Assembly (NCBI RefSeq): GCF_964213995.1
Contig: NW_027590138.1
Span: 1 to 64,000, forward strand
Source: Mustelus asterias
Taxonomy: Eukaryota
Length of the DNA: 64,000 nucleotides
Reading direction: 5' to 3'
The translations under genes were made by a program, and so were the position numbers. The first letter of the stretch is position 1; every line of letters starts with the position of its first letter. Below, in pieces: positions 1-63,365 of this stretch. The notes under the pieces were generated by a model. It saw only the letters and a program-made list of their open reading frames with translations, did not search any database and had not been told where the DNA came from.

Positions 1-109
1 AGCTGACAATGATTCTGAAGGGTTTGCGGATCCACAAAGTGTTTCCAAATCCTCCCAGCCACCGCCTAACGCTGACTCCGCTTCTCCGGGACAAACAAGC
101 GCCAAGGAC

Positions 110-2425: not shown

Positions 2426-3400
2426 TTAAGACCCGAGAATGAAGCCCAGCAGGACCTGAGGACTCATCAGCCCACAGCTCCAACAGTTTGCTGAGGACCA
2501 CTTCCCTGGGAATTGTGCTTTTTCAGAGTTCATCCCACACTTCTGTTTTCTGATTTCCAGCTGTTTCTGAGTTTTAACTCTATCCTCTATTGTGAACACC
2601 GAGGCAAAATACTTGTTCAATTCATCTCCCAGCTCCTTATTTTTCATTATCAATTCCTGGAATCACTTTCTATTAGACAGTTAAGAAATGAGGTGGAGCA
2701 AGTGACTGAAGTGTCAGTCAGGGAGCACTATTGGGAGCACCAATAGTTTCAAAATAGTTCTGGAAAAAGATAGGACAGGTCCACAAGTCAAGGCCCTAAA
2801 CTGGAGCAGGGCCACTTTTGTGGGCATTAGGCAGGATCGAGCAGATGTCGATTAGGTGAATTTGTTTGAAGGGAAAGGAATGACTGGCAATTGGGAGGTT
2901 TTGAAAGTGTGATATCAAGAGTCCAGGGGCAGTATATTCCTGTTAAGATGAAGGGAAAGAATGGTAAATTTAGGGATCTCTGGCAGACAAGGGACATTGA
3001 GGCTCTGGTCAGGTAAAAGAAGGAAGCATAGATTGGGTTTAGGCAATCGGGGACAAGTGAATTACTCTGACTATAAAAAGTGTAAGAAAATACTGAGGAG
3101 GGAAATCAGGAGGACAGAAAGAGGGTATGATATGGATCTGGCAGGTAAGATTAAAGAAAATTCCAAGAGGTTCTATAGCTATATTAAGAGTAAAAGGGTG
3201 GACAGAGAGAGAATAGATCCCCTTAAAAATCAGTATGGCCATCTGTGTGTGGAGCCACAGGAGATGGGTGAGATTTTTAATGAATACTTCTCCTCTGTGT
3301 TTTCTGCGGAGAGCACCATGGGTGCTAAAGAAATAAGGGAAACAAGTGATGATGTCTTGGACACACGCATGTTACTTGGGAGGAGGTATCTGCAGCCTTA
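2426..3400. mobile_element. Two CR1 ORF2 fragments in opposite orientation (minus 2426-2670, plus 2680-3400)
   Basis: Peptides ELNKYFASVFT and IKENSKRFYSYIKSKR...EMGEIFNEYFSSVF are typical of the CR1 EN-RT linker. Confidence 0.85.
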
Positions 3401-3536
3401 TAAAAGCAAATTACTGCGGATGCTGAAATCTGAAACCAAGAGAGAAAATGATGTTTCTTGTCTAGATGACCCTTTGTCAAAGCTCTGAAACATCAGTTCT
3501 TTTCTCTCCATACAGATGCTGCCAGACCTGCTGAGA
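3400..3536. mobile_element. Family B short element (inverted arrangement, hammerhead-like)
   Basis: AAAAGCAAATTACTGCGGATGCTG...GATGACCCTTTGTCAAAGCT followed by an inverted CAGATGCTGCCAGACCTGCTGAGA; a fuller copy lies at 19422-19610. Confidence 0.7.
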
Positions 3537-4022
3537 ATGGGGAGAGAGTGTGTGGGATGGAGTTTGACAGCTTTTGGGGAATGAGAGAGGAAAGAATGTT
3601 CCATAGAAATTGTCTGTTCTGAATTCCTATCCTGTACTGACACTGATGACTTTTGTAAACTCATTTTCCAGGATATTGAAAGAGGAATCACAGGCTGAAA
3701 TCTCAAACGTCACGTCGAGACGTGACAGAGTCATATTCCTTGGGAGCTGAATATCATCGGACTTTCAATCCAGAAGGAGAAATGATTGTCCAGTCTGTCG
3801 ATTTGAAAAGATTTGAAATGTCAGTGTGACTGAAAAAGCATCGACACACTGCCACACTTGAGTGAGAGTGTTCCAATGCACTGACTGAAGAGCTTTAACC
3901 AGTTACACAGTCTGAATAAATATCACACCATTCACAGCGGGGAGAGACTGTAATCTTGTTCTGTGTGTGGACGAAGTTTCAACTAATTGTCCACTCAAGA
4001 GAGAGGCATGGACACCTGCATC

Positions 4023-4781
4023 ATGGAGAAACCATGGAAATGTGCGGATTGTGGGAAGGGATACAGAGCCCCATCTAAGCTGGAAGTTCATCGGCGCAAC
4101 CACACTGGGGAGAGGCCATTCACCTGCTCTCAGTGTGGGAAGGGATTCACTCGGTTATCCCTCCTGCAGAGACACCAGCGAGTTCACACTGGAGAGAGGC
4201 CATTTACCTGCTCTCAATGTGGGAAGGGATTCAGTCAGTTATCCGACCTCCAGAGACACCAGCGAGTTCACACTGGGGAGAGACCGTTCACCTGCTCTCA
4301 GTGTAGGAAGGGATTCACTCAGTTATCCAGCCTGCAGACACACGAACGCGTTCACACTGGGGAGAGACCGTTCACCTGCTCTCAGTGTGGGAAGGGATTC
4401 ACTCAGTTATCCAGCCTGCAGACACACGAACAAGTTCACACTGGGGAGAAACCATTCACCTGCTCTGAGTGTGGGAAGGGATTCACTAACTCATCTGACC
4501 TGCAGACACACCAGCGAGTTCACACAGGGGAGAAACCATTCATCTGCTCTGAGTGTGGGAAGGGATTCACTAACTCATCTGACCTGCAGACACACCAGCG
4601 AGTTCACACAGGGGAGAGGCCGTTCACCTGCTCTCAGTGTGGGGAGGGATTCACTCAGTCATCCAACTTGCAGAGACACCAGCGCATTCACACTGGGGAG
4701 AGACCATTCACCTGCTCTCAGTGTGGGAAGGGATTCAGAGTTTCATCCCACCTGCTGAGACACCAAGAAGTTCACGAGTGA
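4023..4781 (+). CDS. C2H2 zinc-finger protein, 9 fingers, MEKPWKC class (ZNF-A)
   Basis: Nine CxxC-x12-HxxxH units with TGE(R/K)PF linkers; ATG at 4023 (alternative in-frame ATG at 4008); splice acceptor TTTTCCAG at 3671. Confidence 0.88.
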
Positions 4782-5008
4782 TTCCAGGGGTTGGATTCTG
4801 CTGTTATTGTTTCTGCTCTCAATTACATCCAGGACTGCATTTTGTTCGTTCTCACAGTTGGTCAATGGGGAGGGTCGGGGGGTTTCTTTCTGCTGGACTG
4901 GCCGGTCTCATGACTTTGCCTCCAGTGGGCTGATGCTCTTTGAGTCTTGTTGCAAATACCTGGTTTCAGATTTCACAAGGATCACAGAGTGACAGGGTGT
5001 TAGGAAGT

Positions 5009-5359: not shown

Positions 5360-5487
5360 AGCTGTTATGAAGGGTCATCCATTATCGAAACTTTGGCTCC
5401 ATTCTTCACAGATGCTGTCAGACCCGCTGAGATTTTCCAGCATTTTCTGTTTTTGTTTCAGATTCCAGCATCCGCAGTATTTTACTT
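5360..5487 (+). mobile_element. Family B short element, degenerate
   Basis: GAAGGGTCATCC...CGAAAC...CAGATGCTGTCAGACCCGCTGAGATTTTCCAGCA...GATTCCAGCATCCGCAGTA. Confidence 0.65.
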
Positions 5488-11826: not shown

Positions 11827-12602
11827 TGTGAGAAAGCAGACGGGCGGCAGAGTTTTGGATGATCTCACATTTCTATGTGGGGAGTGGGGTGAATGTGAGA
11901 GGCTGCTCAGAAATATATTGGAATCATCAAGACTAAAGGTAACAGATGGAGTGGGGTGGAGACTGTGGACATTTTGGAGATTGAAATATTTGGTATCAGT
12001 GATGGGATGGATATGTGGTCAGAAACTCATCCTGTTGTTAAATCTGACAGCAAGGCCTGAATTTTTCATCCGTTGGGCACACTCACATGGGAGTGCCTGG
12101 AAGTGGGTGTAATCAGCCCTGGAAATCGGCCCCGGAAAGTGATCTCATGCTGGCTGGCTGATTAACGGGCAGTCAGTGTGAAACGTGCACTGGGAAAGGC
12201 TCAGTGCTGCCGGGTAGGGAGGGAGGGAAGGGGACGGGCACTGAGGAAAGCGAGGGTGCTGTTGGCATTTCCAATACGCTCCCTCAGGGGGACAGCTGCT
12301 GCGGAGCCTGTCTCACAGCTACTGACCTGTAAAAAATAAACTGCGATGGAGCTCCTCACACTTGTTGGAGGTGAGAATGGCAGAGATGGGGAGAGGGAGA
12401 ACCCTTCAAAAGGAATTAACTTCTGTTAGCAGTATTTAAAAGACGCAAGACACTGTGTTTAACACAAAGCTGATTTATTTGACTCTTATCCAGAATATTT
12501 ACACCTATAACCGGCCTGGTGTTTATTAACATCAGCAGGACCAGACTCCAGTGAATGATATTCAATCCTGCAGGTGATTAACAGCAAACCCAATCATTGT
12601 CA

Positions 12603-13640
12603 TTACTTGTGACCGCGCTGGTGTCTCAGCAGATGGGATGACTGAGTGAATCCCTTCCCACACACAGAGCAGGTGAACGGTTTCTCCCCGGTGTGAACTC
12701 GCCAGTGTTTCAGCAGACTGGATGAATCACTGAATCCCTTCCCACACTCCGAGCAGCCGAGCGGCCTCTCCCCAGTGTGAATTCTTTGGTGTACGGTGAG
12801 CTGAGATGATTTCCTGAATCCAGTCCCACAACGAGAGCATCTGAACGGTCTCTCGTCAGTGTGAATACGTTGATGGGTCACCAGTTCCCCAGAACTTTTA
12901 AAGCACTTCCCACAATCCAGGCATTTAAATGGTCTCTCGTCAGAGTGAACCCGTTGATGGGATGTCAGTTCCACAGAACTTTTAAAGCACTTCTCACAGT
13001 TCAGGCATTTAAAAGGTCTCTCATCAGTGTGAACTCGCTGATGTTTCAGTAGGTGAGATGACTGAGTGAATCCCTTCCCACACACAGAGCAGGTAAATGG
13101 TTTCTCCCCAGTGTGGATTCGCTGGTGTTTCAGCAGATCAGATAACTGAATGAATCCATTCCCACACTCGGAGCAGGTAAATGATCTCTCTCCAGTGTGA
13201 ATTCGCTGATGTGTCATCAGGTGGGATGACTGAGTGAATCCCTTCCAACACACAGAGCAGGTGAATGGCCTTTCCCCAGTGTGACCACGTTGGTGTCCTA
13301 ACAGATTGGATAACTGAGTGAATCCCTTCCCACGCTCAGAACATGTGAATGGTCTCTCCCCATTGTGATCTCGCTGGTGTTTTAGCAGACTGGATGACTG
13401 AGTGAATCCCTTCCCACACTGAGGGCAGGTGAATGGTCTCTCCCCAGTGTGACTGCGTCGATGAGTTTCCAGGTCAGATGGATAACTAAACGCTTTCCCA
13501 CAATCCCCACATTTCCACAGCTTCTCCCCAGTGTGACTGTGCTTGTGTCTCGACAGGCTGGATGATCGACTGAAGCCTTGTCCACACACACAACACGTGT
13601 ATGGTTTCTCCTCACTGTGAACAGTGCTTTTTCCTTCCAT
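12603..13640 (-). CDS. C2H2 zinc-finger protein, 12 fingers (4th has C>R), MEGKSTVH class (ZNF-C)
   Basis: 345-aa ORF from ATG 13640; acceptor TTTCACAG at 13750; AATAAA on minus at ~12474. Confidence 0.88.
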
Positions 13641-14779
13641 ATTTAATATTCAATGATATTCAAGTTACGATAAATGATACACCTCTGTCAGCTCCTGGTG
13701 TGATGTTTGGTTTCAGTTTCCTGACTGTAAATCCTCCTCTTCTAAAACCCTGTGAAATTGATTTAAAACAAAAACACAGAAGTGAGAGAGAACCCACAAA
13801 AACTCAAAGGCAGCTTGTGAAATTGAGCTGAATGAATCTGGTAATTTGTCTGATACTAATGAACAGTGCTGGATTATCATAAAAACCCAACTGATTCACT
13901 AATGTCCATCAGGGAAAGGAACCTACCACCCAGTCTGGGTCTGTACAGACTCAGGCCTCTACTTAAGGAGAGTTCAAGACAGTGGGAGAGAACGGGGAGT
14001 AATGCAAGAGGTGAGGTTGTGGGGGGATGGGGGAGGTGCTGGTGATGGCAGGAGGAGAGGGATTTTACACATCTATAACTCAGCTGGAGCTTTGACAGAA
14101 TCTCCCAAACCCTCAACTTCCACCACCTGGAAGGACCAGGATCACAAGTGTGAATGAACACCTCGAAATTCACCTTCAAGTCTCACACACTTGGGGATTT
14201 TCACAGTAACTTCATCGCAGTGTTAATATAAACCTACTCGTGACATGATAAACTTTTTAAAAAAACTTTAAACACACTGTTCTGACTTGTCTGCCATCCA
14301 GTCCTGGATGAACAGATATTTTATATATTGGGAAGACTGAAGTCACTGGTTTCAGTCTTTGCTACAAACTTCACTCCCCAGCCACCGACTCCATCTCTCT
14401 CCCTGATAATTGTCCGAGGCTGAACATGATTGTTCACAACCATGGTGACATGTTTCACCTCAAGAATTAGGAGTCGGCCATTCGGTCCATCAGGTCTTTC
14501 ACCTCTGTCACTGTTTCAAGTCTGGATGACCGTTCTCCAAACAGTCATTCAGACTCGAAACGTTGGCTCTATTCTCTCTCCAAAGATGCTGTCAGACATG
14601 CTGGGATTTTCCAGCACTTTGTTTTTGTTAAACATTCACTTGATTGCAGTTTGCTGTGGGTAAATCCTCCCCTTCTAACCCATGTAAAATAAGTTTCCAA
14701 AACCCATCACTCTCAGTCCAGGATAGAAATTCACAACATTGTGTCTGCCTGCTTTCTGGCTCAGGATTACTTAAGCTGG

Positions 14780-17245: not shown

Positions 17246-18144
17246 TGTAAAAGGAGTTTAGAAACATCACTGTCAGTACAAGATAGAAATTCAGAACAGA
17301 CATTTCTACTTTCTGTGGAACATCGTTTCCTCACTTGTTCCTGTGCAGCAGTAAATCCTCATCCTGAACACTTTCCCTCCTCCCTGTCCTGCAACCAACT
17401 CCCACACTGACCAACCAGCTCATATTTCAATGGATTGTCCCATGACTCCAGTGTGCCAGGCTGCATGGCGTATGGGCGCTGTTTCACCCATATGATGGAT
17501 GTGTGCAGCACCCTCTTCCAACTCTTCTGGCTGCCAACCAGCCCCTGTCCACCCACACAGTTCCAGCAGCACCGCACACAATACTGCTCACCTGCTTCGA
17601 CAGACTCATGAAGGATGTCCTTTCATTTTCTCAGAGAGTTGGTCAGCCTGGCAAACCCAGTGTGAAATATCTTCACAAATCTTTTCTCCCACCCTCTATC
17701 CTGGCTGGGTTCAGTTCTCTTTTGTACAGAGTGAAAATAAAATCAATTATTTTCTCTCCTGGTCACTACAGGGAGCTGCAGCTTCTTATTGGCGGCGTTG
17801 GGGCCTCCAGCGGGTGTTTGTGAATCCTCCCCGCCCACCTCCCAGGGTTTCCTTCCTTCCCAGAGATCAGAGTCCTCATTGATTTGAGGCCAAAGTGTAA
17901 CCTCTTATTTATTGTCCCCCTCCCCCATCCTCTGATGTGAACCATCCTCCAGTGGCTGAGCCAGGATGGGGCCGTTAACCTGGGCCTGTTCCCGGGAGGG
18001 AGGGAGGGAGAAGCCCCGCAGCTGCAAACCAGGGAGCTGACAATGATTCTGAAGGGTTTGCGGATCCACAAAGTGTTTCCAAATCCTCCCAGCCACCGCC
18101 TAACGCTGACTCCGCTTCTCCGGGACAAACAAGCGCCAAGGACA

Positions 18145-18330
18145 GCAATGACACTGCGCATGCTCCACATCACAATGCCCCGGGACTGATTGACGGCAGC
18201 TCCGGACCAATAGGAAGAGGGGGCGGGGCTGGAGGACCGAGCGGGAGCGGCTGGTCCTCCAACCAATCGGAGTGAATGAGGGGCGGGACCTGAGGCATGC
18301 GCAGTGCGGGTAATGGCGACGGACGGTTTA
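18145..18330. promoter_or_regulatory. Putative bidirectional CpG promoter between ZNF-C/D (minus) and ZNF-B (plus)
   Basis: NRF1-like ACTGCGCATGCT (~18153) and GCATGCGCAGT (~18296), two CCAAT boxes, two GC boxes. Confidence 0.7.
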
Positions 18331-18363: not shown

Positions 18364-18485
18364 GACCCGGGAATGAAGCCCAGCAGGACCCGAGAATGAA
18401 GCCCAGCAGGACCCGAGAATGAAGCCCAGCAGGACCCGAGAATGAAGCCCAGCAGGACCCGAGAATGAAGGCCAGCAGGACCCGA
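18364..18485. repeat. 23-bp tandem repeat x5 (single unit in the paralogue at 2430)
   Basis: (GACCCGAGAATGAAGCCCAGCAG)5. Confidence 0.9.
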
Positions 18486-19517
18486 GGACCCATCAGCCCA
18501 CAGCTCCAACAGTTTGCTGAGGACCACTTCCCTGGGAATTGTGCTTTTTCAGAGTTCATCCCACACTCCTGTTTTCTGATTTCCAGCTGTTTCTGAGTTT
18601 TAACTGTATCCTCTATTGTGAACACCGAGGCAAAATACTTGTTCAATTCATCTCCCAGCTCCTTATTTTTCATCATCAATTCCTGGACTCACTTTCTATT
18701 AGACAGTTAAGAAATGAGGTCGAGCAAGTGACTGAAGTGTCAGTCAGGGAGCACTATTGGGAGCACCAATAGTTTCAAAATAGTTCTGGAAACAGATAGG
18801 ACAGGTCCACAGGTCAAGGCCCTAAACTGGAGCAGGGCCACTTTTGTGGGCATGAGGCAGGATCGAGCAGATGTCGATTCGGTGAGTTTGTTTGAAAGGA
18901 AAGGAATGACTGGCAAATGGGAGGTTTTAAAAGTGTGATATCAAGAATCCAGGGGCAGTATATTCCTGTTAAGATGAAGGGAAAGAATGGCAAATTTAGG
19001 GATCTCTGGCAGACAAGGGACATTGAGGCTCTGGTCAGGTAAAAGAAGGAAGCATACATTGGGTTTAGGCAATCGGGGACAAGTGAATCACTCCGACTAT
19101 AAAAAGTGTAAGAAAATACTGAAGATGGAAATCAGGAGGACAAAAAGAGGGTCTGATATGGATCTGGCAGGTAAGATTAAAGAAAATTCCAAGAGGTTCT
19201 TTTGCTATATTAAGAGTAAAAGGGTGGCTCGAGAGAGAATAGATCCCCTTAAAAATCAGTATGGCCATCTGTGTGTGGAGCCGCAGGAGATGGGTGAGAT
19301 TTGTAATGAATACTTCTCTGTGTTTACTGCGGAGAGCACCATGGGTGCTAAAGAAATAAGGGAAACAAGTGGTGATGTCTTGGGCACACGCATGTTACTT
19401 GGGAGGAGGTATCTGCAGCCTTATAAAAGCAAATTACTGCGGATGCTGGAATCTGAAACCAAGAGAGAAAATGCTGGAAAATCTCTGCAGGTCTGGCAGC
19501 ATCTGTAAGGAGAGAAA

Positions 19518-19560
19518 AGAGCTGATGTTTCTTGTCTAGATGACCCTTTGTCAAAGCTCT
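19518..19560 (-). ncRNA. Hammerhead-like motif, U3-A8 core variant (family B)
   Basis: AGAGCU-UUGACAA-AGGGUC-AUCUA-GACAA-GAAA-CAUC-AGCUCU: 6-bp stem I, AUC triplet, partly decayed stem II. Confidence 0.5.
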
Positions 19561-20096
19561 GAAACATCAGTTCTTTTCTCTCCATACAGATGCTGCCAGA
19601 CCTGCTGAGAATGGGGAGAGAGTGTGTGGGATGGAGATTTCCAGCTTTTGGGGAATGAGAGAGGAAAGAATGTTCCATAGAAATTGTCTGTTCTGAATTT
19701 CTATCCTGTACTGACACTGATGACTTTTGTGAACGAATTTTCCAGGATATTGAAAGAGGAATCACAGGCTGAAATCTCAAACGTCACGTCTAGACGCGAC
19801 AGAATCATATTCCTTGGGACTTCAATATCATCGGACTTTGAATCCAGAAGGAGAAATGATTGTCCAGTCTGTCCATTTGAAAGGATTTGAAATGTCAGTG
19901 TGAGTGAAAATGCATCAACACACTGCCACACTTGAGTGAGAGTGTTCCAATGCACTGACTAAAGAGCTTTAACCAGTTACACAGCCTGAATAAATATCAC
20001 ACCATTCACAGCGGGTAGAGACTGTAATCTTGTTGTGTGTGTGGACGAAGTTTCAACTGATTGTCCACCCAAGAGAGAGGTAAGGACACCTGCACC

Positions 20097-20771
<675 letters not shown>

Positions 20772-20994
20772 TTCCAGGGGTTGGATTCTGCTGTTATTGT
20801 TTCTGCTCTCAGCTGCATCCAGGACTGCATTTTGTTCATTCTCACAGTTGGTCAATGGGAAGGGTCAGAGGGTTTCTTTGTGCTGGACTGGCTGATCTCA
20901 GCCTCCAGTGGGCTGATGCTCTTTGAGTCTTTTTGCGAATACCTGGTTTCAAATTTCACGAGGATCACAGAGTGACAGGGTGTTAGGAAGTTTA

Positions 20995-33829: not shown

Positions 33830-34467
33830 CACTACATATCTTGGGACACCAAGGGACAAATTTACCTAACCTGCACATCTTTGGGCTATGAGAAAAAACC
33901 GGAGCACCCAGAGGAAATGCACACAGACAGAGGGATATTGTGCAAACTCCACACATGAGGGGGAGATGCCAGCGCTGAGCTGGGGTGAGCACAGTAAGAA
34001 GCCTCACGACATAAGGTTAAAGAACAACAGGTTTATTTGGAACCACAAGCTTTCAGAGCGCTGATGAAGGAGCAGTGCTCTGAAAGCTCGTGATTCCAAA
34101 TAACCAAAAGAAGAATGCTGGAAAATCTCAGCAGGTTTGGCAACATCTGTAAGGACAGAAAAGAGCTGACATTTCGAGTCCAGATTACTCTTTGTCAAAG
34201 CTTTGACAAAGGGTCATGTGGATTCGAAGCATCAGCTCTTTTCTCTGCTGACAGATCCTGCCATATCTGCTGAGATTTTCCAGCAATTTCTCTTTTGGTC
34301 TCAAATTCCAGCATCCGCAGTAATTTGCTTTGATTCCAAATAAACTTATTGGACTTTAACCTGGTGTTATGAGACTTCTTACTGTGCAAACTCCACAGAG
34401 ACAGTCACCCACCGCTGGAATCGAACCCAGACTCAGTGAGGCAGCAGTGCGAACCGCTGTGCCACAG
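33830..34467 (-). mobile_element. HE1-like SINE interrupted by a palindromic family A element, itself interrupted by a palindromic family B element
   Basis: TSD TGTGCAAACTCCACA at 33939-33953 and 34383-34397; TSD TGATTCCAAATAA at 34091-34103 and 34331-34343. Confidence 0.88.
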
Positions 34468-35257
34468 TGAAGGTAGTTTGCCGCAAATTTCGGGTGACAA
34501 CAATGGGCTGGATGTTGCTCAGAATGTGGAGCACTGCAGCAAAGTACAGACAGACAGAGACAGAGCAGCAGACTGGACTGAGAAATGGAGTCTGCAGACT
34601 GGAACTGGCAGCATGAGGAGAGGTTATTTACTCTAACACTCACAGCAATCTACAACTTTTAACATTTAAGAAAAACTTGGACGGGTTCATGGATGAGAGG
34701 GGTGTGGAGGGATATGGTCCAAGTGCAGGTCAGTGGGACTGGGCAAAAAATGGTTCGGCACAGACAAGAAGGGCCAAAAGGCCTGTTTCTGAGCTGTAAT
34801 TTTCTATGGTTCTAACCCACCCCCATTACCGAGACAGTGAGACAGAGATTATAAACACTCACCAACACAGCTCCACTGAAACGTCCCAGGAAAAAGGGGG
34901 AATCTGTGGCAGTTCCTGTCCTGAAATAGCCCCAGGACTGTCACTCAAACCCCCAACCCGGCCCAGTTCACAGCTCAGCCTCTCAGCTTGCAGCTTCCTG
35001 CACCTCGAGCCAACCCTGTCCAGGTGTGGCAGGTCGGTGGAACCACAGAGTGGGGGGAGGGGTGACCTCCTGCTGTGCCCCAAATAGTTTCTCCTTCCCC
35101 TCCCCCTTGGCGCTCTCAGCTCTCAATGTGGATGTGTTGATGGACTTTGCAGAGCCTCACTGAGCTGCGCCTGTCCCTTATCCGGTGTCACCCCCTTCCC
35201 CCTGGGTTCAGTGCGTTCAGTTCGCTGCTTCTTTCCCTGCTGAACCTTCAGTTAATC

Positions 35258-35415
35258 AAAAACAGAAAGTGCTGGAAAACCTCAGCAGGTCTGATCGCAT
35301 CTGTGATCATCCAGACTGGAAGCATTAACTCTACTCTCTCTCCACAGATGCTGAGATTTCCAGCATTTTCTGTTTCTGTTTCAGATTCCAGCATCCGCAG
35401 TATTTTGCTTTTATC
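35258..35415. mobile_element. Family B-related short element, inverted arms
   Basis: AAAACAGAAAGTGCTGGAAAACCTCAGCAGG...CAGATGCTGAGATTTCCAGCATTTTCTGTTT...CAGCATCCGCAGTATTTTGCTTTTAT. Confidence 0.7.
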
Positions 35416-35951
35416 TTCATTTAAACAAGCATTCTTTGACGGCCTTTACCCTCCGTGCTCCTTTCCAGAGCTTCCCACCTTCTGCTATTGTCCCTGACTC
35501 CCACATTAACTCTGTCATTCCTCCCCTTTACCCCGCTCACCCTGTCTGAAGTCAGGCTCAGAGTTTTCCCGCCATCTCCCCCTCCCCCAGCCTCCACATC
35601 CCAACACCCGGAATCTCTAACCCAGCGGTTCCAGTTTGTCTGGTTTGAGTTCAGATTTGCCGCAGCACCGACAGGATTTCACTTCAAACCAGCCGGAACT
35701 GACTGCTCACAAATCCCTAAATGTTTCTCCAGCAGCCCGGGCTTGTTAACGTTGTTTAAAGTCAGCGCCCAAATGCAGCTACTCTCCTCAGTTTAAAAAG
35801 CTTCTCCGTTTAATCTGAAGTATTATTTGCACCAGACACAAACACAAAATTATGAACGTTACCCGAACCCCCCCCCAGACCCGAGCTGGTGTGTCCTGAG
35901 GAAGAGACATCTGTTCCAGGTGTGACAATTCTTACACATTCTCTGCTTGAC

Positions 35952-36633
35952 ATAAAACGGAAAACGCTGGAAATACTCATGAATGAAAGCAAGTTGTTGC
36001 TTTCGTCAAAAGGGTCACTTGGACTCGAAACCTCAGCTCTTTTTGTCTCCTTACAGATGCTGCCAAACCTGCTGAGATTTTCCAGCGTTTTCTCTTTAGG
36101 CTGGAAATACTCAACAAGTCAGGCAGCCTCTGTGGAGAGAGGAACAGACTGAGTGTGACCTGTCATCGGAACTGGGAAATATAATATTATTTCTCGCAAC
36201 TGAAAGAGACACTTTACAGCCTTCAGAACAAAACTGAGCTCAACAATTTTACACCACAATCTCTGCCCCCATTCTGTTCTGTGTTTCGTTGCTGCTTTTT
36301 TCACCTCATTTCCCTCTTGTTTACTTTACATTCAGACTATTGCTCACCAGCTATTCACACCTCATCCAGAACATCTTTTGTGTCTTTACTTGTCCCATTA
36401 CCACTCGCTTTGGTCTTGGGCCGTGAATCATTTTGTCAGTTTGCGGATCTTACATTTTGTTCTTCTCCACCTCCCTCTCTCAATTCTTCAGAGGTCAGTC
36501 TTTGACAAAGGGTCATCTGGACTCGAAACGTCAGCACTTTTCTCCCCTGACAGATGCTGTCAGACCTGCTGAGATTTTCCAGCATTTACTCTTTTGGTTT
36601 CAGATTCCAGCATTCACTGTAATTTGCTTTTAT
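35952..36633. mobile_element. Cluster of family B elements
   Basis: Copy 35980-36099 is flanked by GCTGGAAATACTCA (35966-35979, 36100-36113); a plus-strand copy ends AATTTGCTTTTAT at 36633. Confidence 0.7.
36497..36536 (+). ncRNA. Hammerhead motif, U3-A8 core variant (best family B copy)
   Basis: CU-UUGACAA-AGGGUC-AUCUG-GACUC-GAAA-CGUC-AG: 5-bp stem II, palindromic ACGU, GUC triplet. Confidence 0.6.
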
Positions 36634-40230: not shown

Positions 40231-40717
40231 TTCCACTGTGTTACTTATTCATTACAATAGGGACCAGAGTCTGAGGTTATAAATGGGTGAGTTTACTCCA
40301 ATAGTAATTCTTTCGACATCTGACAAGTTTACAGCTATTAACATCCTGCCTATCAAATAGCTCCAGCCTACATATGAGAGAACCAACATTCAGAGCTTTC
40401 AAATCCTCATCCTGAAGTTACAAAACAGACTTTAGTCATCGGCCTGCTGATACATCGGCACATTCACACAGGGGTGGATTGGACTGTCATCTGTTTATTA
40501 TTCATCTTTAGTTCAATACAGTTTCTGAGTGATTTAAATTCAAAACAAGGTCTGCAGGCGTGAAGATTTATTGACACATGAATGAGAGATGCTGTGGGGC
40601 ATTCTACGAGTCTAACAGGGCTGATTTACATCAGAAAAACTCCAACTATCAGAATAAACATAATTCAGTCTGGATGTAATTAACAGCAGCAATAACAGCA
40701 GAATCACACCCCTGTGA

Positions 40718-41923
40718 TCACTGGTGAACTCGCTGGTGTCTCACCAGGTTGTGTGACTGGGTGAATCTCTTTCCACACTTTGAACAAGTGAACGGCTTCT
40801 CCTCACTGTGAACTTGTTGGTGCCTCAGCAGAATGGATGACCGGGTGAATCCTTTCCCACACTCAGTGCAGGTGAACGGTTTGTCCTCAGAGTGATTTCG
40901 CTGGTGTGCGAGCAGAAGTCTTCTGCTTTTAAAGCTCTTCTCACAGTCAGAACATCTGAACGGTCTCTCATTTGTGTGAACAAGTTGGTGTGAAGTGAGA
41001 GAGGATAAACAAGTGAATCCCTTCCCACACACAGGGCAGGTGAACGGCCTCTCCCCAGTGTGAATTCGCTGGTGTACAGTGAGGTCGCCTGATCGCCTGA
41101 AACCAGTCCCGCAGTGAGAGCACATGAATGGTCTGTCGTCAGAGTGAACACGTTGATGGTGACGCAGTTCCTCAGAACTTTTATAGCCCTTCCCGCAGTC
41201 TGGACATTTAAACGGTCTCTCTTCACTGTGAACTCGTTGGTGTTTCTGCAGGTTGGATGATCGGTTAAATCCCTTCCCACATTCAGAGCAGGTGAATGGC
41301 CTCTCTCCAGTGTGAATGCGCTCATGTGCCACAAGGTGGAATGATGTCCTGAACCCTTTCTGGCAGTGGGAGCAGCTGAACGGTGTGGAACCGGTGTGAA
41401 TGTACTGGTGCTCCCGCAGTGTGCGTGGAGTTTTAAAACTCTTTCCACACTCAGTGCATTTAAACTCTCTCCTGTCGGTGTGAACTTGCTGGTGTCTCTG
41501 CAGGGCAGAGAAATCTGTGAATCCCTTCCCACACACGGAGCAGGTGAATGTCCTCTCCCCTGTGTGAATGTGCCAATGCATCAGCAGGGCCGATGACTGA
41601 GTAAATCCTTTTCCACATTCAGAGCAGGTGAACTGCCTCTCCCTGCTGTGAATGCGCTGGTGAATCAACAGGCCAGCTGTCTGAGTGAATCCCTTCCCAC
41701 ACACAGGGCAGGTAAAAGGTCTCTCTCCAGTGTGAGTGCGTTGGTGATTTTTCAGGTCAACTGGATAATTGAATCCTTTCCCACAGTCTCCACATTTATA
41801 CGGTCTCTCCCTGGTGTGACTGCGCTTGTGACTCGACAGGCCAGATGATCGATTGAAGCCTTGTCCACACACAGAACACGTGTACGGTTTCTCCTCTCTG
41901 TGAACGGTGCTTTTTCCTTCCAT
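40718..41923 (-). CDS. C2H2 zinc-finger protein, 14 fingers, MEGKSTVH class (ZNF-E)
   Basis: AACATGG start at 41923; frame open back to the acceptor TTTTTCAG at 42030; AATAAA on minus at ~40567. Confidence 0.9.
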
Positions 41924-42590
41924 GTTCAAAGGCCGATGATGTTCAGATCCTGATGAATCAAAGCTCTCTGTCTGATCTTGATGTGATCCTTGATGTACAA
42001 TTTTCTGTAATTCCTCACCTTCTAATCCCCTGAAAAATGAATTGAAAACAGAAAGAGGGAAACATGAGAGACAAGCCATAAATATACAAAGACAAAATGT
42101 GAAAGTGAGTTGATCTAATCTGGTAAATTGTGGGATTGGGACTGGGAAATAGTGGATATGAAAGCTGCTGGATTGTGACAAAGCCTCAAACTGTTTACCA
42201 GTGCACTGAGGGAAAGGAACCCTCCACCTCTTCAGAGCCAACAACAAGAATCCAGCCTTTATGCGTGAAGAGGGAGAGGTCGGGAGGAGGGTGACGGAGA
42301 GAGACTTTATACATCAGCAACTCAACCAGGATTTTGGCAGAATCTCCTAAACCCACAATCTTCTCCACCTGGAAGTACCAGAGCAGCTGGGACATGGGAA
42401 AACCACACAACTCCCTGACTTGGACAAATATCACTATCCCTTCAACGTGACTGGGTTAAAATTCTAATACTCTTGCATTGTGGGAGCACCTACGGACTGC
42501 AGAGGTTCAAGAAGAAGGCCAACTATCACCATCACAAAGGACAATTGGTGATTGGTAACATATGATAGTAATAGTCTGTGATAGTAATTC

Positions 42591-45522: not shown

Positions 45523-46580
45523 CCAGCAAACTGGGCAACAGGTGTCTAAACAGTTTCACCCGCTCCCAGCCTGCAGCTGATGTTTGCAGGAGTCCATGAA
45601 TCATGTACATATTCAGTGTGAGAGGTTGCAGTCCCTGAAGGAGCTGCTTCTCCACTTTTAGTTACACTTCTATTCTGCCCCATGCTCCTAATCATTGGCT
45701 TCCCATGTGGAGGAGGCTTGGGAGGTCAGAGGACCTTTTCCTGGACCTGCTCTCTTGGGGCTGGTTAAAACAGTGATTTGTAGATCAGCATGGGGTAACT
45801 AGGTTGTTGGCCTCTCTCCCACGGTCTTGTCCATGCTCGCGTGGTCCTGGAGAAGAACCGTGCAGTGTCGACTGCAACACTCGATACCTTCCACAACTCA
45901 GGGTACAGAGTGTCTCATAGACACTGGAAACAAAGTTCTGGTTTAGTTGAGATGGAAGTTTGATTGGACCACAAGATTGCGGAAACAAGAGAGAAAAGAA
46001 TATTCCATGGAAATGAGAATTGTCTGTTATGACTTTTTATCCTGTGCTGACAATGATACTGACTCTGTCAATGTCTTTTACAAGGTCCACAAGGGCGATG
46101 AATTGCAGATTGGAAACTGAAACCAAACATCACATCAAGAGCTGATAGAGTCACTCAGTTCATCAGAACCTGAATATCATTGACCTTTAAATGTGGAAGG
46201 AGAAATGTTTTTCTGTTTTGGCGGTGAGGAAAGATTTCAAACATCAGTGTGACTGGAAAAGCACCGAGACACACACACACCCGAGTGAGAGTGTTCCAGT
46301 GAACTGACTGTGGAAAGAGCTTTAACCAGTTACACAGCCTGATTTTTAAAAAGTGTCATTATTCACAGCAGAGAGCCAAAGGATGAGAAGATCTTGGAGC
46401 AGAGTTGGGCCCATTGAGTCTGCTCCACTATTCACTGATCTGATATAATCCTGAACTCCACTTTCCTGCCTTATCCCCATGACCCTTGATTCCCTTACTG
46501 AGAAATAATACACAAGTTCTTTATGTGGACAAGGCTTGAACAGATTGTTTAACCTAGAGGGACACAAGGACACCTACACT

Positions 46581-47630
46581 ATGGAGAAACCATGGAAATG
46601 TGGGGACTGTGGGAAGGGATTCAGTTACCCATCGCTGCTGGAAATACATCGCCGCAGTCACACTGGGGAGAGACCATTCACCTGCTCCGTATGCGGGAAG
46701 GGATTCATTCAGTCATCCCACCTGCTGACCCACCAGCAAGTTCACATTGAAGAGAGGCTTTTTAGCCACTCTGACAGCGATAACAACTCTAAAAGCTCTG
46801 AGGACCTGGTCAAGCACCAGATTGTTCACATTGCAAGACAGTTCAGTTGCTCTCATTGTGGGAAGCTGTTTAAACGATCACAGAACCTCATTGAACACGA
46901 ACGCACTCACACTGGGGAGAGGCCATTCATCTGCTGTGTGTGTGGGAAGGGATTCACACGATCATCCCACCTCGCTACACACCGACTGGTTCACACTGAT
47001 AACAGACCTTTCAAATGTTCCGAATGTGAGAAGAGTTATAAAACCACAAGTGATCTGCTGATACACCAGCGAGTTCACAATGGGGAGAGGCCATTCAGAT
47101 GTACAGTGTGTGGGAAGGGATTCACTCTGTTATCCAGCCTCCAGAAACACCAGCGAGTTCACACTGGGGAGAGGTCGTTCGCCTGCTCCTTGTGTGGAAA
47201 AGGATTCATTTATTTAACCAGTCTCAGATCACACCAACTTGTTCACTCGGATAAGAAACCTTTCAAATGTTCTGAATGTGAGAAGAGCTTTAAGACCTCA
47301 AGTGTTCTGCTGAGACACCAGCAAGTTCACTCCGGGGAGAGACCGTTCACCTGCTCTGACTGTGGAAAGGGATTCACTCGTTCATCCAACCTGCAAACAC
47401 ACCAGCACATTCACACCGGGGAGAAACCATTCACTTGCTCTGAGTGTGGGAAGGGATTTTCTCACTCACCCCACCTGCTGAGACACCAACGCACTCACAA
47501 TGGAGAGAGACTGTTCACCTTCTCTGAGTGTGAGATGGGATTCACTCAGTCAACCCATCTTCTAACACACCAGCAAATTGACAAGTGTCTGGAGGAATTG
47601 GATTCTGCTGTTATTCACATCCAGGACTGA
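46581..47630 (+). CDS. C2H2 zinc-finger protein, 10 intact and 2 degenerate fingers, MEKPWKC class (ZNF-F)
   Basis: ACTATGG start at 46581; acceptor at ~46084; a LINE-tail fragment is inserted in the leader at ~46375-46500. Confidence 0.88.
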   Translation: MEKPWKCGDCGKGFSYPSLLEIHRRSHTGERPFTCSVCGKGFIQSSHLLTHQQVHIEERLFSHSDSDNNSKSSEDLVKHQIVHIARQFSCSHCGKLFKRSQNLIEHERTHTGERPFICCVCGKGFTRSSHLATHRLVHTDNRPFKCSECEKSYKTTSDLLIHQRVHNGERPFRCTVCGKGFTLLSSLQKHQRVHTGERSFACSLCGKGFIYLTSLRSHQLVHSDKKPFKCSECEKSFKTSSVLLRHQQVHSGERPFTCSDCGKGFTRSSNLQTHQHIHTGEKPFTCSECGKGFSHSPHLLRHQRTHNGERLFTFSECEMGFTQSTHLLTHQQIDKCLEELDSAVIHIQD

Positions 47631-50508: not shown

Positions 50509-53029
50509 CAGTCACTACAAAAACCAGCAAGTAGTTTCTTTAACCAAAATATACTGATAGTCACCTGCCCCAATGAGAACTCTAAAAGGTCGACACATCA
50601 ATGAGACATTTGAAACAATGAACCCAAATGTTAACCATTGGGATTTGACACCATAAACTTGCTTATTTCAAATAAGTGACAAAGAAGATATCTTTAGGTC
50701 TCCATTATCTCAGTATAAAGCCATAAAATTTAATAAAATCACAGAAAAGGCATATGGGGCAAACTCCGTAAGTAACTGATACATTAGAGGGCCAGTCGGG
50801 AGATTGCAGGAAATGGTCAGGAGATGACCATCACCATTAAGAAACCAATCAGAAACTGATTACACACCATCTAAATCAATCAGGGACTGATCATGGTGAA
50901 CCAGAGTTCAGGAACACCATTCATCGTGCACAGGGGCTGTGTCTAGAAATGGTTAATAACCATCAGCTTTCAGCTGCCCAGTTCACACCTCAGAGAAGCT
51001 GAGCAGGAAGAAGATAGACAACAATCAACAGAACAAGAAACAGTGCCGCAGTCGGCTGGAAGTTGTGCGCCAGAGTTACAAAGTGAACTGACTGCTTCCA
51101 CTGCCTTTGTTAAGTTTTGCATTTTGTACTTGTGATTAACTTAGTAAATTCTGTAAAGCTTGGAACAATATTTGCACCCAGTATGGTCCTGTAGCTAGTT
51201 GTAAATGAAAGTCCCTTTTAGATCAGCTCTCCCAACTAAACCCAACAACTGTAATTGACTCTAAGTCTTACATTTAAGTTGAGGTGAACCCACGTCTTTC
51301 AGAAAATCTCTGCCAACTTTGGCACAAGCCCCCAGCTGTTAGCCAGGAATTCTTTGCAGGATTAACTTGGGAACAGTGTGCTTTTATCATTTCTGGAACC
51401 TAGGTCAATGTGGGGTGGTCAGTCTGGTTTTATCATTGACTCTTCTGTAGCAATTTGACAACTGAATAGCTTGCTCAGGATAGAGAGCTCTGAATCTATT
51501 GTATTACCTCTGTTCTGCAGAACAAGTAACTATACTCTGTCTATTATTGCAGTGCTGTAATAAAGTCAGTTAAAGACAATCGGTTGTTGGGAGTTTGATT
51601 ATCTGATGTATGAAACCACAAGATTCAATATTTAGAGTCAACAAGATGAACAAGGAAACACATCAGGGCCCAAAACTCCAGCTGGATATTCACAGGAGAA
51701 AGTCTGTTACCCAACATCTTGAGTGGACAGAACAGAGAAAGGTCCCAACTGTAAGAAACCCTCCAAACATTTGTAAATATATTTCAAATGTTGACAGGTC
51801 CCAACTCCCAGTTTCCATTAAATTGAAATCAATGAAAGATCTGAGACAGACAGTTGGGTTGAAAGCAGTGCGGGGCCCACATGGACTGAGAAACCAAATC
51901 CAGGGACCACTTACACCGAGACACCAAATCCAGGCAGCATTTGCGCTTTGAAGTTGATTTATCAGGTAGAAGTTGTTTGCAATAAATCCCCAATTTTAAA
52001 TTAAATCTACAAGATTTAACTATCTGGCCAGAATGAACATTCTAATTGGTAAATTCAGATGATTTATTAACCATTAAAAGGTAGAAAGGTAACAAGTTAG
52101 AAAGATAAAAAGCAAAGTTTGAATTAACAGTGATTGACAGGAGGAGGAGAAAGCTCATCTTGAACAATGAAACAGACTTCTCACAACTTTCCTCGGTTGA
52201 TCAGGCCAAAGACGCGAAATGATCATCAGACATGATACATGTTAACAGAATGGCTACTCAAAACCTTTATTTTAACCCCTTCAACTCACATTTGCTTAAC
52301 TCAAATTAGCCTCAGTGTTGAATGATAATTGATTAACTTAATTGTCTGATTGGCCCCTGACACCTACTGGCATCTCCTGATGTCTGAGTACAAAGGTCTA
52401 CTGAATAAATGAGACAGCTTGGGTAAGGTCCCATTTATTCCCAACTTAATGTAACTTGTCAAAGCCATAAATGTTTTGTGAGCTCGACCTTATCTTTCTA
52501 GATTGGCTGGAAAACATAATTTGACAGTTCTCATGATTTATGACCAGTGTACGTAAAATCATATTATTTATTATAATAAAACATTACAGACTTTGTGTTA
52601 CAGGTTATATTACCAGTCTGACAAGTACAACTATTAAGTGCTGATTCTTCAATTGTCTCAGAATGAAGGTTCTTCACTTCACCAATATGAGGATGTTAAC
52701 CCGAGGGTCCCGTCTGCTCTCTGAGGTGAAAGATCACACGGCTTCTATTTGGAAGGAGAGGAGGGAGCTCACCCTGCTGAAACCAATATTACCCCTCACC
52801 CAATCTCCCTAAAAACAGATCACTGCCCCTCATCACATTGCTGCTTGTGGAGGCTGACTGCGCACAGAGATGTCCTGAGGTTGTGAAAGGTGCTATATGA
52901 ATGCAAATTCTGTCGACTCCAGCCCAGTTACTGTACTTTGCAGCAACATCATCAACACTTCCCCAATGTCAGAATGAACAAGGTTCAGTCCTGAATCTGA
53001 TTAACAACAGCAGAATCAGAGCAGAGCCG

Positions 53030-53899
53030 TCATCTGTGAACTCGCTGGTGTTTCACCAGATTGGATGATTCGGTAAATCTCTTCCCGCACTCGGAGCAGG
53101 TGAATGGCCTCTCCCCAGTGTGAATGCGCTGGTGTGTCAGCAGGTGGGATGATCGTGCAAATCCCTTTCCACACTCAGAACAGGTGAACGGCCTCACCTC
53201 AGTGTGAATTTGTTGATGTGTCAGCAGGTTGGAGGACTGACTGAATCCCTTCCCACACTTGGAGCAGATGAACGGCTTCTCCCCAGTGTGAACTCGCTGG
53301 TGTACAGTGAGATGAGATGATCGTCTGAACCCAGTCCCACAGTGAGAGCACTGGAACGGTCTCTCCTCAGTGTGAACAAGCTGATGGGACATCAGTTCAC
53401 CAGAACTTTTAAAGCACTTCCCGCACTCTGGACATTTGAAAGGTCTCTTGTCAGTGTGAACTCGTTGGTGTGTCTGAAGGTGGGTTGCTGTCCTGAAACT
53501 CTTCCCACACTTAGAGCAGTTGAACAGTGTGTACTCGGTGTGAATGCGCTGGTGCTCCCTCAGTCCATGTGGGCTTTTAAAGCTCTTCTCACAATTGGAG
53601 CATTGAAACTCTCTCTTGTCAGTGTGAACTTGCTGGTGTTTCAGCAGGTGGGATGAGCGAGTGAATCCGTTTCCACACACCGAGCAGGTGAACGGCCTCT
53701 CCCCGGTGTGGAGTCGCTCATGCAGCTGAAGGCAGATGAACTGAGCGAATCTCTTTCCACATACGGAACAAATGAACGGCCTCTCCCCGGTGTGTCTGCG
53801 TCGATGAATTTCCAGCTCAGATGGGGATCTGAATCCCTTCCCACAATCCACACATTTCCACCGTTTCTCCCTGGCGTGAACGGTGCTTTTTGCTTCCAT
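53030..53899 (-). CDS. C2H2 zinc-finger protein, 10 fingers, MEGKSTVH-like class (ZNF-G)
   Basis: AACATGG start at 53899 (MEAKSTVH); acceptor TTTTACAG at 54004. Confidence 0.9.
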
Positions 53900-54389
53900 G
53901 TTCAAAGGCCGATGATATTCAAATCCTGATGAATCGAGTGACTCCGTCAGATTTTGATGTGATGTTTGGTTTGACTTTCCTGATCGTGAACCTTTCAAAT
54001 ATTCTGTAAAATGAATTTAAGACAGAATCAAGGAAATATAAAAGAGAACCCAGAAAAACACATAGGCAGGTTGTGAAATTGAGCTAAATTAATCTTGTAA
54101 TTTGTGGGGCCAGCGCTAGGAAAAAGTGACCCTGAAAACTGCTGGTTTCTCATAAAAACCCAACTGGTTCACTAATGTTCTTTAGGGAAGGGAACCTGGC
54201 GCCCAGTCGGGGCTTACACAAGGCTCTGGCTTCCATGGGAGGAGAGAGAGAGGTGAAGGAGAGGGTAAAAAAGATGAACTTCATAGATCTGCAACTGAAT
54301 TTGAATTTTGAAAGAATCTCCCAAACCCATAACTCCACCCACAGAAAGATAAGAGCAGCTGATGCCTGGAAAAACCATCACCTCCAAGA

Positions 54390-60984: not shown

Positions 60985-62283
60985 GTTGTTATATGGTACA
61001 GATTCGATATATTATTTATAGCTCTGTAATAAAATACACTTATTATATCTGGCTGTGTAATTTTGGACTGCAGTTATATTATATATTTCCAACAATCTCT
61101 TCCCTCAGAGAATTGTTAGTGTCTAGACTTCTCTTCCATAGGGACCAGTGGAGGGATTGAATATATTCAAGGATGAGTTAGACAGTTTTTGAATGACAAG
61201 GGAGTCAATAATTATTGGGAACAGGCTGGAAAATGGAGAGAAAGCTCAGATGAGGAAGGATTTCTTCACTCAAGGACGTGGTGATGTTTTGGATTCTCTA
61301 CCCCAGAGGACTACAGAGCCTCAGTCATCAAGAATTTTCAAGAGAGGGATTGATAGGTTTCTGGATATTGAAGATATCGATGGATATGGGGGACAGTGTG
61401 GGGAAAATAATGCAGAGGTTGATCAACCAATAATCTGAATGAATGGTTGAGCAGACTCGATGGGCCGAATGCTGACTGCAGCTCCTATTTGTTCTGATTT
61501 CTGTGCTGGACAGGAAGCAGTGAGCATGGATCTGTCAATCAGCCTCAATCAGCACCTTCAGGAGAATTGGGAGGGTGAATATTAGATACAGAAGAGTGAG
61601 AATGGAGGGAGAGTGTGTGGGATGGAGATTTACGGCTTTTGGGGAATGAGAGAGGAAAGAATGTTCATTAGAATCATGGAATTGCTGCATCTTATCAACC
61701 GTCCCTGAGCTTTCACAATGAATCCCACTTCTGAGGACACCCTTATCTCTGACTTGTCTGTACTGCCGGCAGTCTCACAAAGCAGCTGCCTGTGTGCTGA
61801 TACGGGAGGCCCTGCTCGGCAAGTTTAATGCTCCATGACTGTGTATTTAATGAATGCTCCATAGAAACTAGAAATGTCGATTTGAATTTCGATCGTATTC
61901 TGAATTACGATGTTTTTTCTAAATTGACTTACAGGATATTAGACAAGGAGAAATCAGACAGAAATCTCCAACATCACATCGAGATCTGACAGAGTGACTC
62001 GACTTCTTGGGAACTGAATATCATTGGCCTTTGAATCTAGCAGGAGAAATGTTTGTTTGGCCTCTTGGCTTCAAAAGATTGTAAACATCACTGTGACTAG
62101 GAATGCACTGAGATACACACACCCGAGTGAGAGTGTTCCAGTGCACTGAGTGTGGAAAGAGCTTTAACCAGTTACACAGCCTGAAAATACATCGCAGCAT
62201 TCACAGCGGGAGAGACTGTACCCGTGTTCTGTGTGAGATTTAACTGATTGTTTAACCTGGAGAGTCACAAGGACACCCGCACC

Positions 62284-63015
62284 ATGGAGAAACCGTGGAA
62301 ATGTGGGGACTGTGGAAAGGGATTCAGATACCCATCTGTACTGGAAATTCATAAACGCAGTCACACTGGGGAGAGGCCGTTCACCTGCTCTGTGTGTGGG
62401 AAGGGATTCACTCATTCATCCCACCTGCGCAGACACAATCTCACTCACACCAATGAGAGACCGTTTAAATGCACTGACTGTGGGAGCGGATTCAGAAGCT
62501 CTCAGGATCTGGTGTCCCACCAGCGCACTCACACTGAGGAGAGACCGTTCAGCTGCTCTCACTGCTCAAAGAGGTTTAAATGGTCATCCACCCTGCGGGT
62601 ACACCAGCGAGTTCACACTGGGGAGAATCCATTCACCTGCTCGGTGTGTGGGAAGGGATTCACTCAGTCATTCCACCTGTGCAGACACAATCTCACTCAC
62701 AGCAATGAGAGACCGTTTAAATGCTCTGACTGTGGGAGCGGATTCAGAAGCTCTCAGGATCTGGTGTCCCACCAGCGCATTCACACTGAGGAGAGACCAT
62801 TCAGCTGCTCTCACTGCACAAAGAGGTTTAAATGGTCATCCAGCCTGCGGGTACACCAGCGAGTTCACACTGGGGAGAGACCATTCCCCTGCTGTGTGTG
62901 TGGGAAGGGATTCACTGCTTCATCCAGCCTGCTGAAACACAAAGCCACTCACTCCAAGGAGAGCCCCTTTAATGCTCTGCCCGAGAGGCCGGCTTCAGAA
63001 GCTCTCAGGAACTGA
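62284..63015 (+). CDS. C2H2 zinc-finger protein, 8 intact fingers, 3'-truncated by a frameshift, MEKPWKC class (ZNF-I)
   Basis: CACCATGG start at 62284; fingers 2-4 duplicated as 5-7; frameshift at ~62967; acceptor TTACAG at 61934. Confidence 0.82.
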
Positions 63016-63365
63016 TGATCCCCGAGCACATTCACACCGGGGAGAGGCCGTTCAGCTGCTCTCACTGTTCAAGGAGGTTTAGAATATCACCAACACTGCT
63101 GAAACACCAGTGAGTTCACACCGGGGAGAAACCATTCACCTGCTCGGTGTGTGCGAAAGGATTTACTCAGTTATCCAGCCTGCCCAGACACAACATCATC
63201 ACACCCAGGAGAGACCCTTTAAATGTGGGCGTAGCTTCAAAAGCTCTCGGGAACTAATGTCCCACCAGTGAGTTCACACCAGGCAGAGGCTGGTCACCTG
63301 CTCTGACTGGGAAGGGATTCACTCAGTCAGCAAACTTGGTGAAACACCAGTGAGTTCAGAAGTGA
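62960..63365 (+). pseudogene. Decayed distal zinc fingers of ZNF-I
   Basis: About 5 finger remnants with indels and CAG TGA stops at 63111, 63269 and 63351. Confidence 0.8.

Follow-up and report, generated by a model that had tools for sequence, protein, structure and literature searches.

Hammerhead ribozymes with U3-A8 have already been published for Penelope-like elements (PLEs). Minimal hammerheads of this kind gave about 1,300 hits in the Cercyon family of Schistosoma, with low activity as dimers and an extra nucleotide after A9 (Cervera and De la Peña, 2014; PMC4209133), and other natural U3-A8 hammerheads, for which activity in vitro is cited, are on record (Perreault, 2011; PMC3088659). 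In the lizard Anolis carolinensis, the Poseidon element PAc has two internal start sites of reverse transcription that define its tail, and its hammerhead depends on the element's protein for cleavage (Frangieh et al., 2024; PMC11167929). Further literature was used for comparison (PMC7151607, PMC6155905, PMC7761336).

We analyzed a window of 64,000 nt (positions 1-64,000, the whole stretch of DNA under study) within a genome of 3.68 Gb, in which a first-pass annotation had pointed out a dispersed hammerhead-like motif, called here family B. Compared with Cercyon of S. mansoni, as described in PMC4209133, family B is alike in its stem I of 4 bp, the extra nucleotide between 9 and 10.1, G10.1-C11.1, the palindromic 15.2-16.2, the lack of a loop 3, U3-A8 itself and the mostly dispersed copies, single or on opposite strands. 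It differs by a vertebrate-type host, by a stem II of 5 bp instead of 7-8, and by U3-A8 being the master state of an RT and GIY-YIG family, in a genome that also carries a C3-G8 sister. With PAc (PMC11167929) it has in common a hammerhead at the junction of pseudo-LTR (pLTR) and ORF, a tail of 30-40 nt from two RT starts and a lack of support for cut RNA as template, but PAc is C3-G8 and its ORF runs from stem II, whereas the likely ATG of family B lies about 170 nt behind U3. As in Penelope of Drosophila virilis, the promoter would be in the pLTR (Schostak et al., 2008; PMC2377424) and helix I has an acceptor-like AG at its 5' end, the point to which PMC4209133 assigns the end of an intron; the Penelope promoter is internal and TATA-less, whereas that of family B is a putative TATA box fixed 30 nt before stem I. 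The first-pass annotation expected searches for CUGANGA to miss such a family; the variant itself is not novel, and U3-A8 descriptors already exist, which returned the Schistosoma hits. We found no description of family B in the literature searched on hammerhead 3-8 variants and shark Penelope, the coverage of which was incomplete, and family B is a new example of a published variant.

Copies of family B in the window

The five motifs of the first-pass annotation are real, and each carries U3 and A8 (Table 1), but none retains the full motif of the family majority and they are not independent. The copies at 3446 and 19520 lie in a segmental duplication (2430-4692 against 18456-20766, 91% identity; a second stretch, 1-277, matches 18035-18311) and show identical errors, with a broken stem II and a lost ACGU palindrome; in the former, stem I has also lost its 3' strand to an internal deletion. 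Stem II and palindrome are both broken at 34164, and the copy at 34199 bears A15.1>G and G16.2>A. At 36498 the core is intact and two of the four stem I pairs remain; cleavage of this motif would fall after 36532, as the annotation had predicted. The first two copies are duplication twins, and those at 34164 and 34199 belong to one insertion as its two arms, so the five motifs represent three insertions.

Table 1. Coordinates of family B copies and of other repeats in the window.
Feature	Position	Strand	Motif in register	Remarks
Family B arm, duplication twin of the 19424 arm	3401-3484	-	3446-3484	
Partner of the 3401 arm	3481-3536	+		
Family B arm, long tail	19424-19558	-	19520-19558	Stem II broken
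Partner of the 19424 arm	19555-19610	+		Without stem II
Family B pLTR arm, short tail	34102-34202	-	34164-34202	U3 34198
Family B pLTR arm, long tail	34199-34331	+	34199-34237	U3 34203, A8 34208
Target-site duplication (13 nt), left	34091-34103			Flanks 34102-34331
Target-site duplication (13 nt), right	34331-34343			Flanks 34102-34331
Sixth family B arm	36009-36100	+		Stem II and tail present, core lost
Solo family B arm	36500-36632	+	36498-36536	Tail to 36632; stem I reduced to 2 bp; core 36502-36508, extra A 36509, stem II 36510-36524, GAAA 36525-36528
Host repeat, second family	33954-34380 (approximate limits)	+		Canonical CUGAUGA hammerhead-like core at 34061
Second repeat family, other copies	1071, 30478, 42722	-		
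Second repeat family, other copy	50418	+		
Older decayed relatives, sister-type tails	5370-5487, 14538-14637	+		
Older decayed relative, sister-type tail	35259-35413			
C2H2 zinc-finger arrays (84-bp repeat)	3905-4876, 12599-13657, 19979-20866, 40714-41940, 46463-47599, 52980-53951, 62213-63198	both		
Minisatellite (32/25 bp), long	30673 to about 33000			Strong C skew

The arms of the 34102-34331 insertion meet head-to-head around a common AGCT and are predicted to form a single hairpin of -127 kcal/mol. This insertion, which sits within another hammerhead-bearing repeat, is flanked by a target-site duplication, while three further insertions checked in the window gave no clear one. A sixth arm, absent from the first-pass annotation, was also found. 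The window copies themselves contain no RT/GIY-YIG frame and are dead, decayed end fragments.

The setting is one of C2H2 zinc-finger arrays and repeats. The second repeat family, with a CUGAUGA or CUGAAGA core, an extra A, a stem II of 5-6 bp and GAAA, is likely another Penelope-like pLTR. An Rfam scan of the window (E<=5) gave 14 hits with no hammerhead family among them, and its miRNA-like hits are accounted for by inverted family B arms.

The parent element and its predicted transcript

Family B is the pLTR (hammerhead plus tail) of a very abundant autonomous PLE. The unit consists of the hammerhead, a tail region of about 130 nt, one ORF and a 3' UTR of 355-420 nt containing a TATA box, after which hammerhead and tail come again. 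The ORF encodes an RT, a CxxxxCxxC linker and a GIY-YIG domain with CCHH; the Zn-finger-like CxxxxCxxC stands between RT and EN in frame P0001. Among 150 scored hits to an RT query, 20 loci with long open frames were chosen; the motif is present at 19 of them, typically 355-420 nt behind the ORF stop, and all 24 cores listed at such loci are U3/A8. The 732-aa frame of locus L221 matches RVT_1 (E 6e-07, above the cut-off) and GIY-YIG (E 0.006, below the curated Pfam cut-off); the frame of L224 gives like matches, and an NCBIfam search gave no hit. The Penelope affiliation, a guess in the first-pass annotation, is thus borne out by an RT and GIY-YIG frame upstream of the motif. A different Penelope-like RT/EN frame adjoins a family B copy at L237:1379-2500(-).

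Homology between copies upstream of the motif stops at nested lengths behind a common 3' end and extends into the GIY-YIG frame. Copies end at +95..106 or at +131/132 from U3, both forms being present in the 34102-34331 insertion, and these two ends match the optional PLE tail of 30-40 nt and the two RT start sites given in PMC11167929. A sample of 78 arms at 70 loci was selected by tail only from the first 100 listed matches; 45 of these arms have an inverted partner, a known trait of PLEs. A query with the 5' body recovered 25 full-length-type loci, 11 of which have a direct upstream pLTR reaching the motif: three start exactly at the stem I AGCT and continue through the tail into the ORF, and eight have a longer direct pLTR. 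The marks of an EN+ PLE are therefore present, namely RT and C-terminal GIY-YIG encoded in one ORF, partial-tandem pLTRs, inverted 5'-truncated copies and a tail. The same organization, with the CxxxxCxxC linker, is described for the C-terminal EN+ elements of Neptune/Nematis type (Craig et al., 2021; bioRxiv 2021.04.23.441226; PMC8557442), and the Cys linker points to these clades; Neptune is preferred only because it is the clade named in fishes.

The genome also holds a sister family, a related element with a C3-G8 core. In 42 of 45 family B copies and in all six sister copies that retain the region, a TATAAA precedes the A of stem I by 30 nt, a constant distance although the spacer sequences differ. 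Tail-selected arms start at -6..-1 in 39 of 78 cases (28 of the 45 with an inverted partner, 11 of the 33 without) and at the cleavage site in only two, both at an inverted AGCT junction, which disfavors cut RNA as template; no start at the cleavage site was seen among the 25 5'-body loci. The TATA box thus lies 30 nt ahead of stem I, at the usual distance to a start, and copies begin at stem I instead of at the cleavage site; the transcript therefore likely opens with the motif as its first 39 nt and serves uncut as the template, as judged from sequence. Fold-back at the AGCT palindrome may be a partial cause of the -4 boundary, as 28 of the 39 arms starting there have an inverted partner.

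Contigs of five runs cover the motif, often with loose ends at stem I, and list no change at 3 or 8, but they are uninformative on start, strand and cleavage, and changes close to contig ends are left out of their tables; their listed features include no GT..AG joint. In the contigs of run X1 (organism A; L027:1531), H17 is U in about 96% of the depth, therefore representing another subfamily of the element in a related organism. Loci L313, L314, L316, L319 and L322, covering pLTR to ORF start, show within 400 nt about seven acceptor-like motifs of pyrimidine tract and AG, one of which overlaps the 5' strand of stem I, and a GT at 16.2-16.1 with an AG 74 nt later is reminiscent of the 75-nt Penelope intron.

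The lowest-energy fold predicted for the intact 39-mer pairs G5-A6-C7 with G16.2-U16.1-C17 (-9.8 kcal/mol, against -8.3 for the open form). With the ACGU palindrome present, a double-hammerhead dimer is predicted at -14.9 kcal/mol, 8 kcal/mol above the duplex at -23.2. Because the 39-mer favors the form burying G5-C7 and a duplex is predicted to be more stable than the dimer form, the modeled folds agree with a cleavage that would require help, for example from the element's protein.

Positions 3 and 8 across the genome

Core states were counted as exact matches with a shared 21-nt 3' anchor, the U3-A8 pattern having a fixed C7 and the others any N7. U3-A8 was found 4097 times, C3-G8 70, C3·A8 123 and U3·G8 66 times. 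The 4097 matches are exact 28-mers; the complete 39-mer is exact in 1573 copies, and a 32-mer of the tail in 9267. Reversed-sequence controls gave no match, so that the abundance of family B is far above chance. The family majority and these 1573 copies, but none of the five window copies, have every part of a minimal type I hammerhead (core 3-9, G12-A13-A14, A15.1-U16.1, H17, a paired 3-8 and stems I and II), and what was first proposed from the window, a mobile family whose hammerhead layout carries U3-A8, holds at that level. Assigned by their 3' flank, the first 30 C3-G8 loci are sister family in 29 cases, while family B accounts for 12 of 15 C3·A8 loci and for 52 of 55 U3·G8 loci (of 66). 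A pattern with the sister loop gave 394 matches, the first 30 loci of which comprise 21 C3-G8, four C3·A8 (sister family with CpG decay) and five U3-A8 (all family B). Copy-by-copy CpG decay as the origin of A8 was rejected, as 4097 U3-C7-A8 stand against 12 U3-U7-G8 among the 66 U3·G8 matches.

We consider it probable that the window motifs are decayed, 5'-truncated, inverted end fragments of an autonomous PLE whose pLTR opens with a predicted minimal hammerhead, in which C3-G8 became U3-A8 once, in the master. The TATA box of an upstream pLTR would start transcription at the stem I A, reverse transcription of uncut RNA by the element's protein would begin at two internal sites, about 33 nt from each other, and short solo and head-to-head copies would arise by early termination and fold-back. 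The hammerhead would likely cleave only late, as a dimer or aided by the protein; such cleavage would have kept 3-8 paired in the master, and inserted copies would then decay neutrally.

The two majority 39-mers differ at five sites (3, 8, loop II, H17 C/U and a stem I U-A/U·G pair), and all five differences are compatible with the structure, against 0.85% of random sets of five changes, a test that is partly circular because the sister copies were mostly chosen by motif patterns. Between the families the motif (34/39) is no better conserved than the tail (88/97), and the evidence for constraint on the master's motif is modest. In the same element, the hammerhead might no longer matter, U3 and A8 having drifted in the master and the pair being restored by luck: G8A is a transition at a CpG, and the sister 7-8 CpG decays to C3·A8 in 4 of 25 non-B loci; catalytic mutants of the anole element insert unimpaired in vitro (PMC11167929) and Naiad PLEs spread without hammerheads; and the predicted minimum is a fold other than the active one. 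We hold this for unlikely, given the five structure-preserving differences out of five, the recurrence of U3-A8 among unrelated hammerheads (PMC4209133, PMC3088659) and a paired form about 60-fold commoner than U3·G8.

At the level of inserted copies, the 62 tail-selected arms that cover position 3 comprise 55 U3-A8, two U3·G8, two C3·A8, three other and no C3-G8, and only seven have a fully intact motif. Non-CpG core sites are substituted in 22/619 cells (3.6%), and loop II plus tail in 68/1832 (3.7%, p 0.90; tail alone 40/1526, loop II 28/306). Inserted copies thus decay neutrally, and the core, lost at the neutral rate, is not under selection in them. The first-pass annotation had taken the joint change of 3 and 8 in five copies as a sign of selection for self-cleavage; it reflects shared descent from one master, and because C3-G8 belongs to the sister family, the covariation comes down to a single change, between two masters, instead of five. 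Copy-level covariation was accordingly rejected as proof of selection. Only a comparison of masters could argue for selection, and there a single event is unable to demonstrate covariation statistically. That the dispersed copies are themselves maintained as working ribozymes, as the 1573 complete 39-mers could suggest, is very improbable and already largely refuted for these loci by the scarcity of intact motifs (0/5 in the window, 7/62 in the sample), by neutral decay and by head-to-head arms predicted to lock the motif within a long hairpin. Just as little credit can be given to a non-autonomous family of its own, retrozyme or fold-back (MITE-like), that borrows a Penelope enzyme: the majority of copies are short, many are palindromic, and animal retrozymes have been proposed as PLE derivatives (bioRxiv 2026.07.22.740005), but nested truncations join the short copies to the 3' UTR and ORF, tail length and arm junction vary from copy to copy, and, instead of the non-coding tandem monomers with one hammerhead each of a non-LTR retrozyme, the loci examined hold truncations of a coding element and no tandem monomer arrays.

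A possible path to U3-A8 and a possible role of the ribozyme

Within the single-master reading, the 66 U3·G8 matches bear on how the change took place. With positions 3, 7 and 8 masked, a tree of 46 long copies shows a star-like family B (median tip 0.057), well separated from the sister family at 100/100. The U3·G8 copies require 7 changes on this tree against 10.8 when shuffled (1 of 500); no clean U3·G8 clade was recovered on it, six of 12 grouping at 91/76 support, and a first tree gave no diagnostic column for U3·G8 at p<0.002. A two-site UTR haplotype common to all four sister copies, and older-looking, is carried by U3·G8 copies at 9:5, against 7:44 in A8 copies not selected by the UTR query (p 0.0004) and 6:13 in pattern-selected A8 copies (p 0.085). 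In a core-blind search, G8 occurred in one of 12 copies with the old haplotype and in none of 42 with the main one. U3·G8 is thus a possible wobble intermediate, as far as the copies' sequences indicate; reversion within a sub-lineage or back-mutation could also explain it. The clustering of U3·G8, the haplotype bias, the TATA spacing and the copy starts lead us to a tentative joint scenario, in which the C3-G8 of the sister would have given a replicating U3·G8 wobble master and then U3-A8 by CpG transition, the re-paired form sweeping to tens of thousands of copies, and in which the ribozyme, making up the first 39 nt of a transcript driven by the TATA box, would remove the cap after copying or translation.

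The value of family B lies in the test pair that it forms with its sister: both are autonomous, they are related and share a genome, and their hammerheads differ at 3, 8 and three neutral sites, a comparison that bears directly on the purpose of PLE hammerheads. If the transcript indeed begins with the first base of stem I, cleavage would take off a capped piece of 35 nt, which would give these ribozymes a concrete role.
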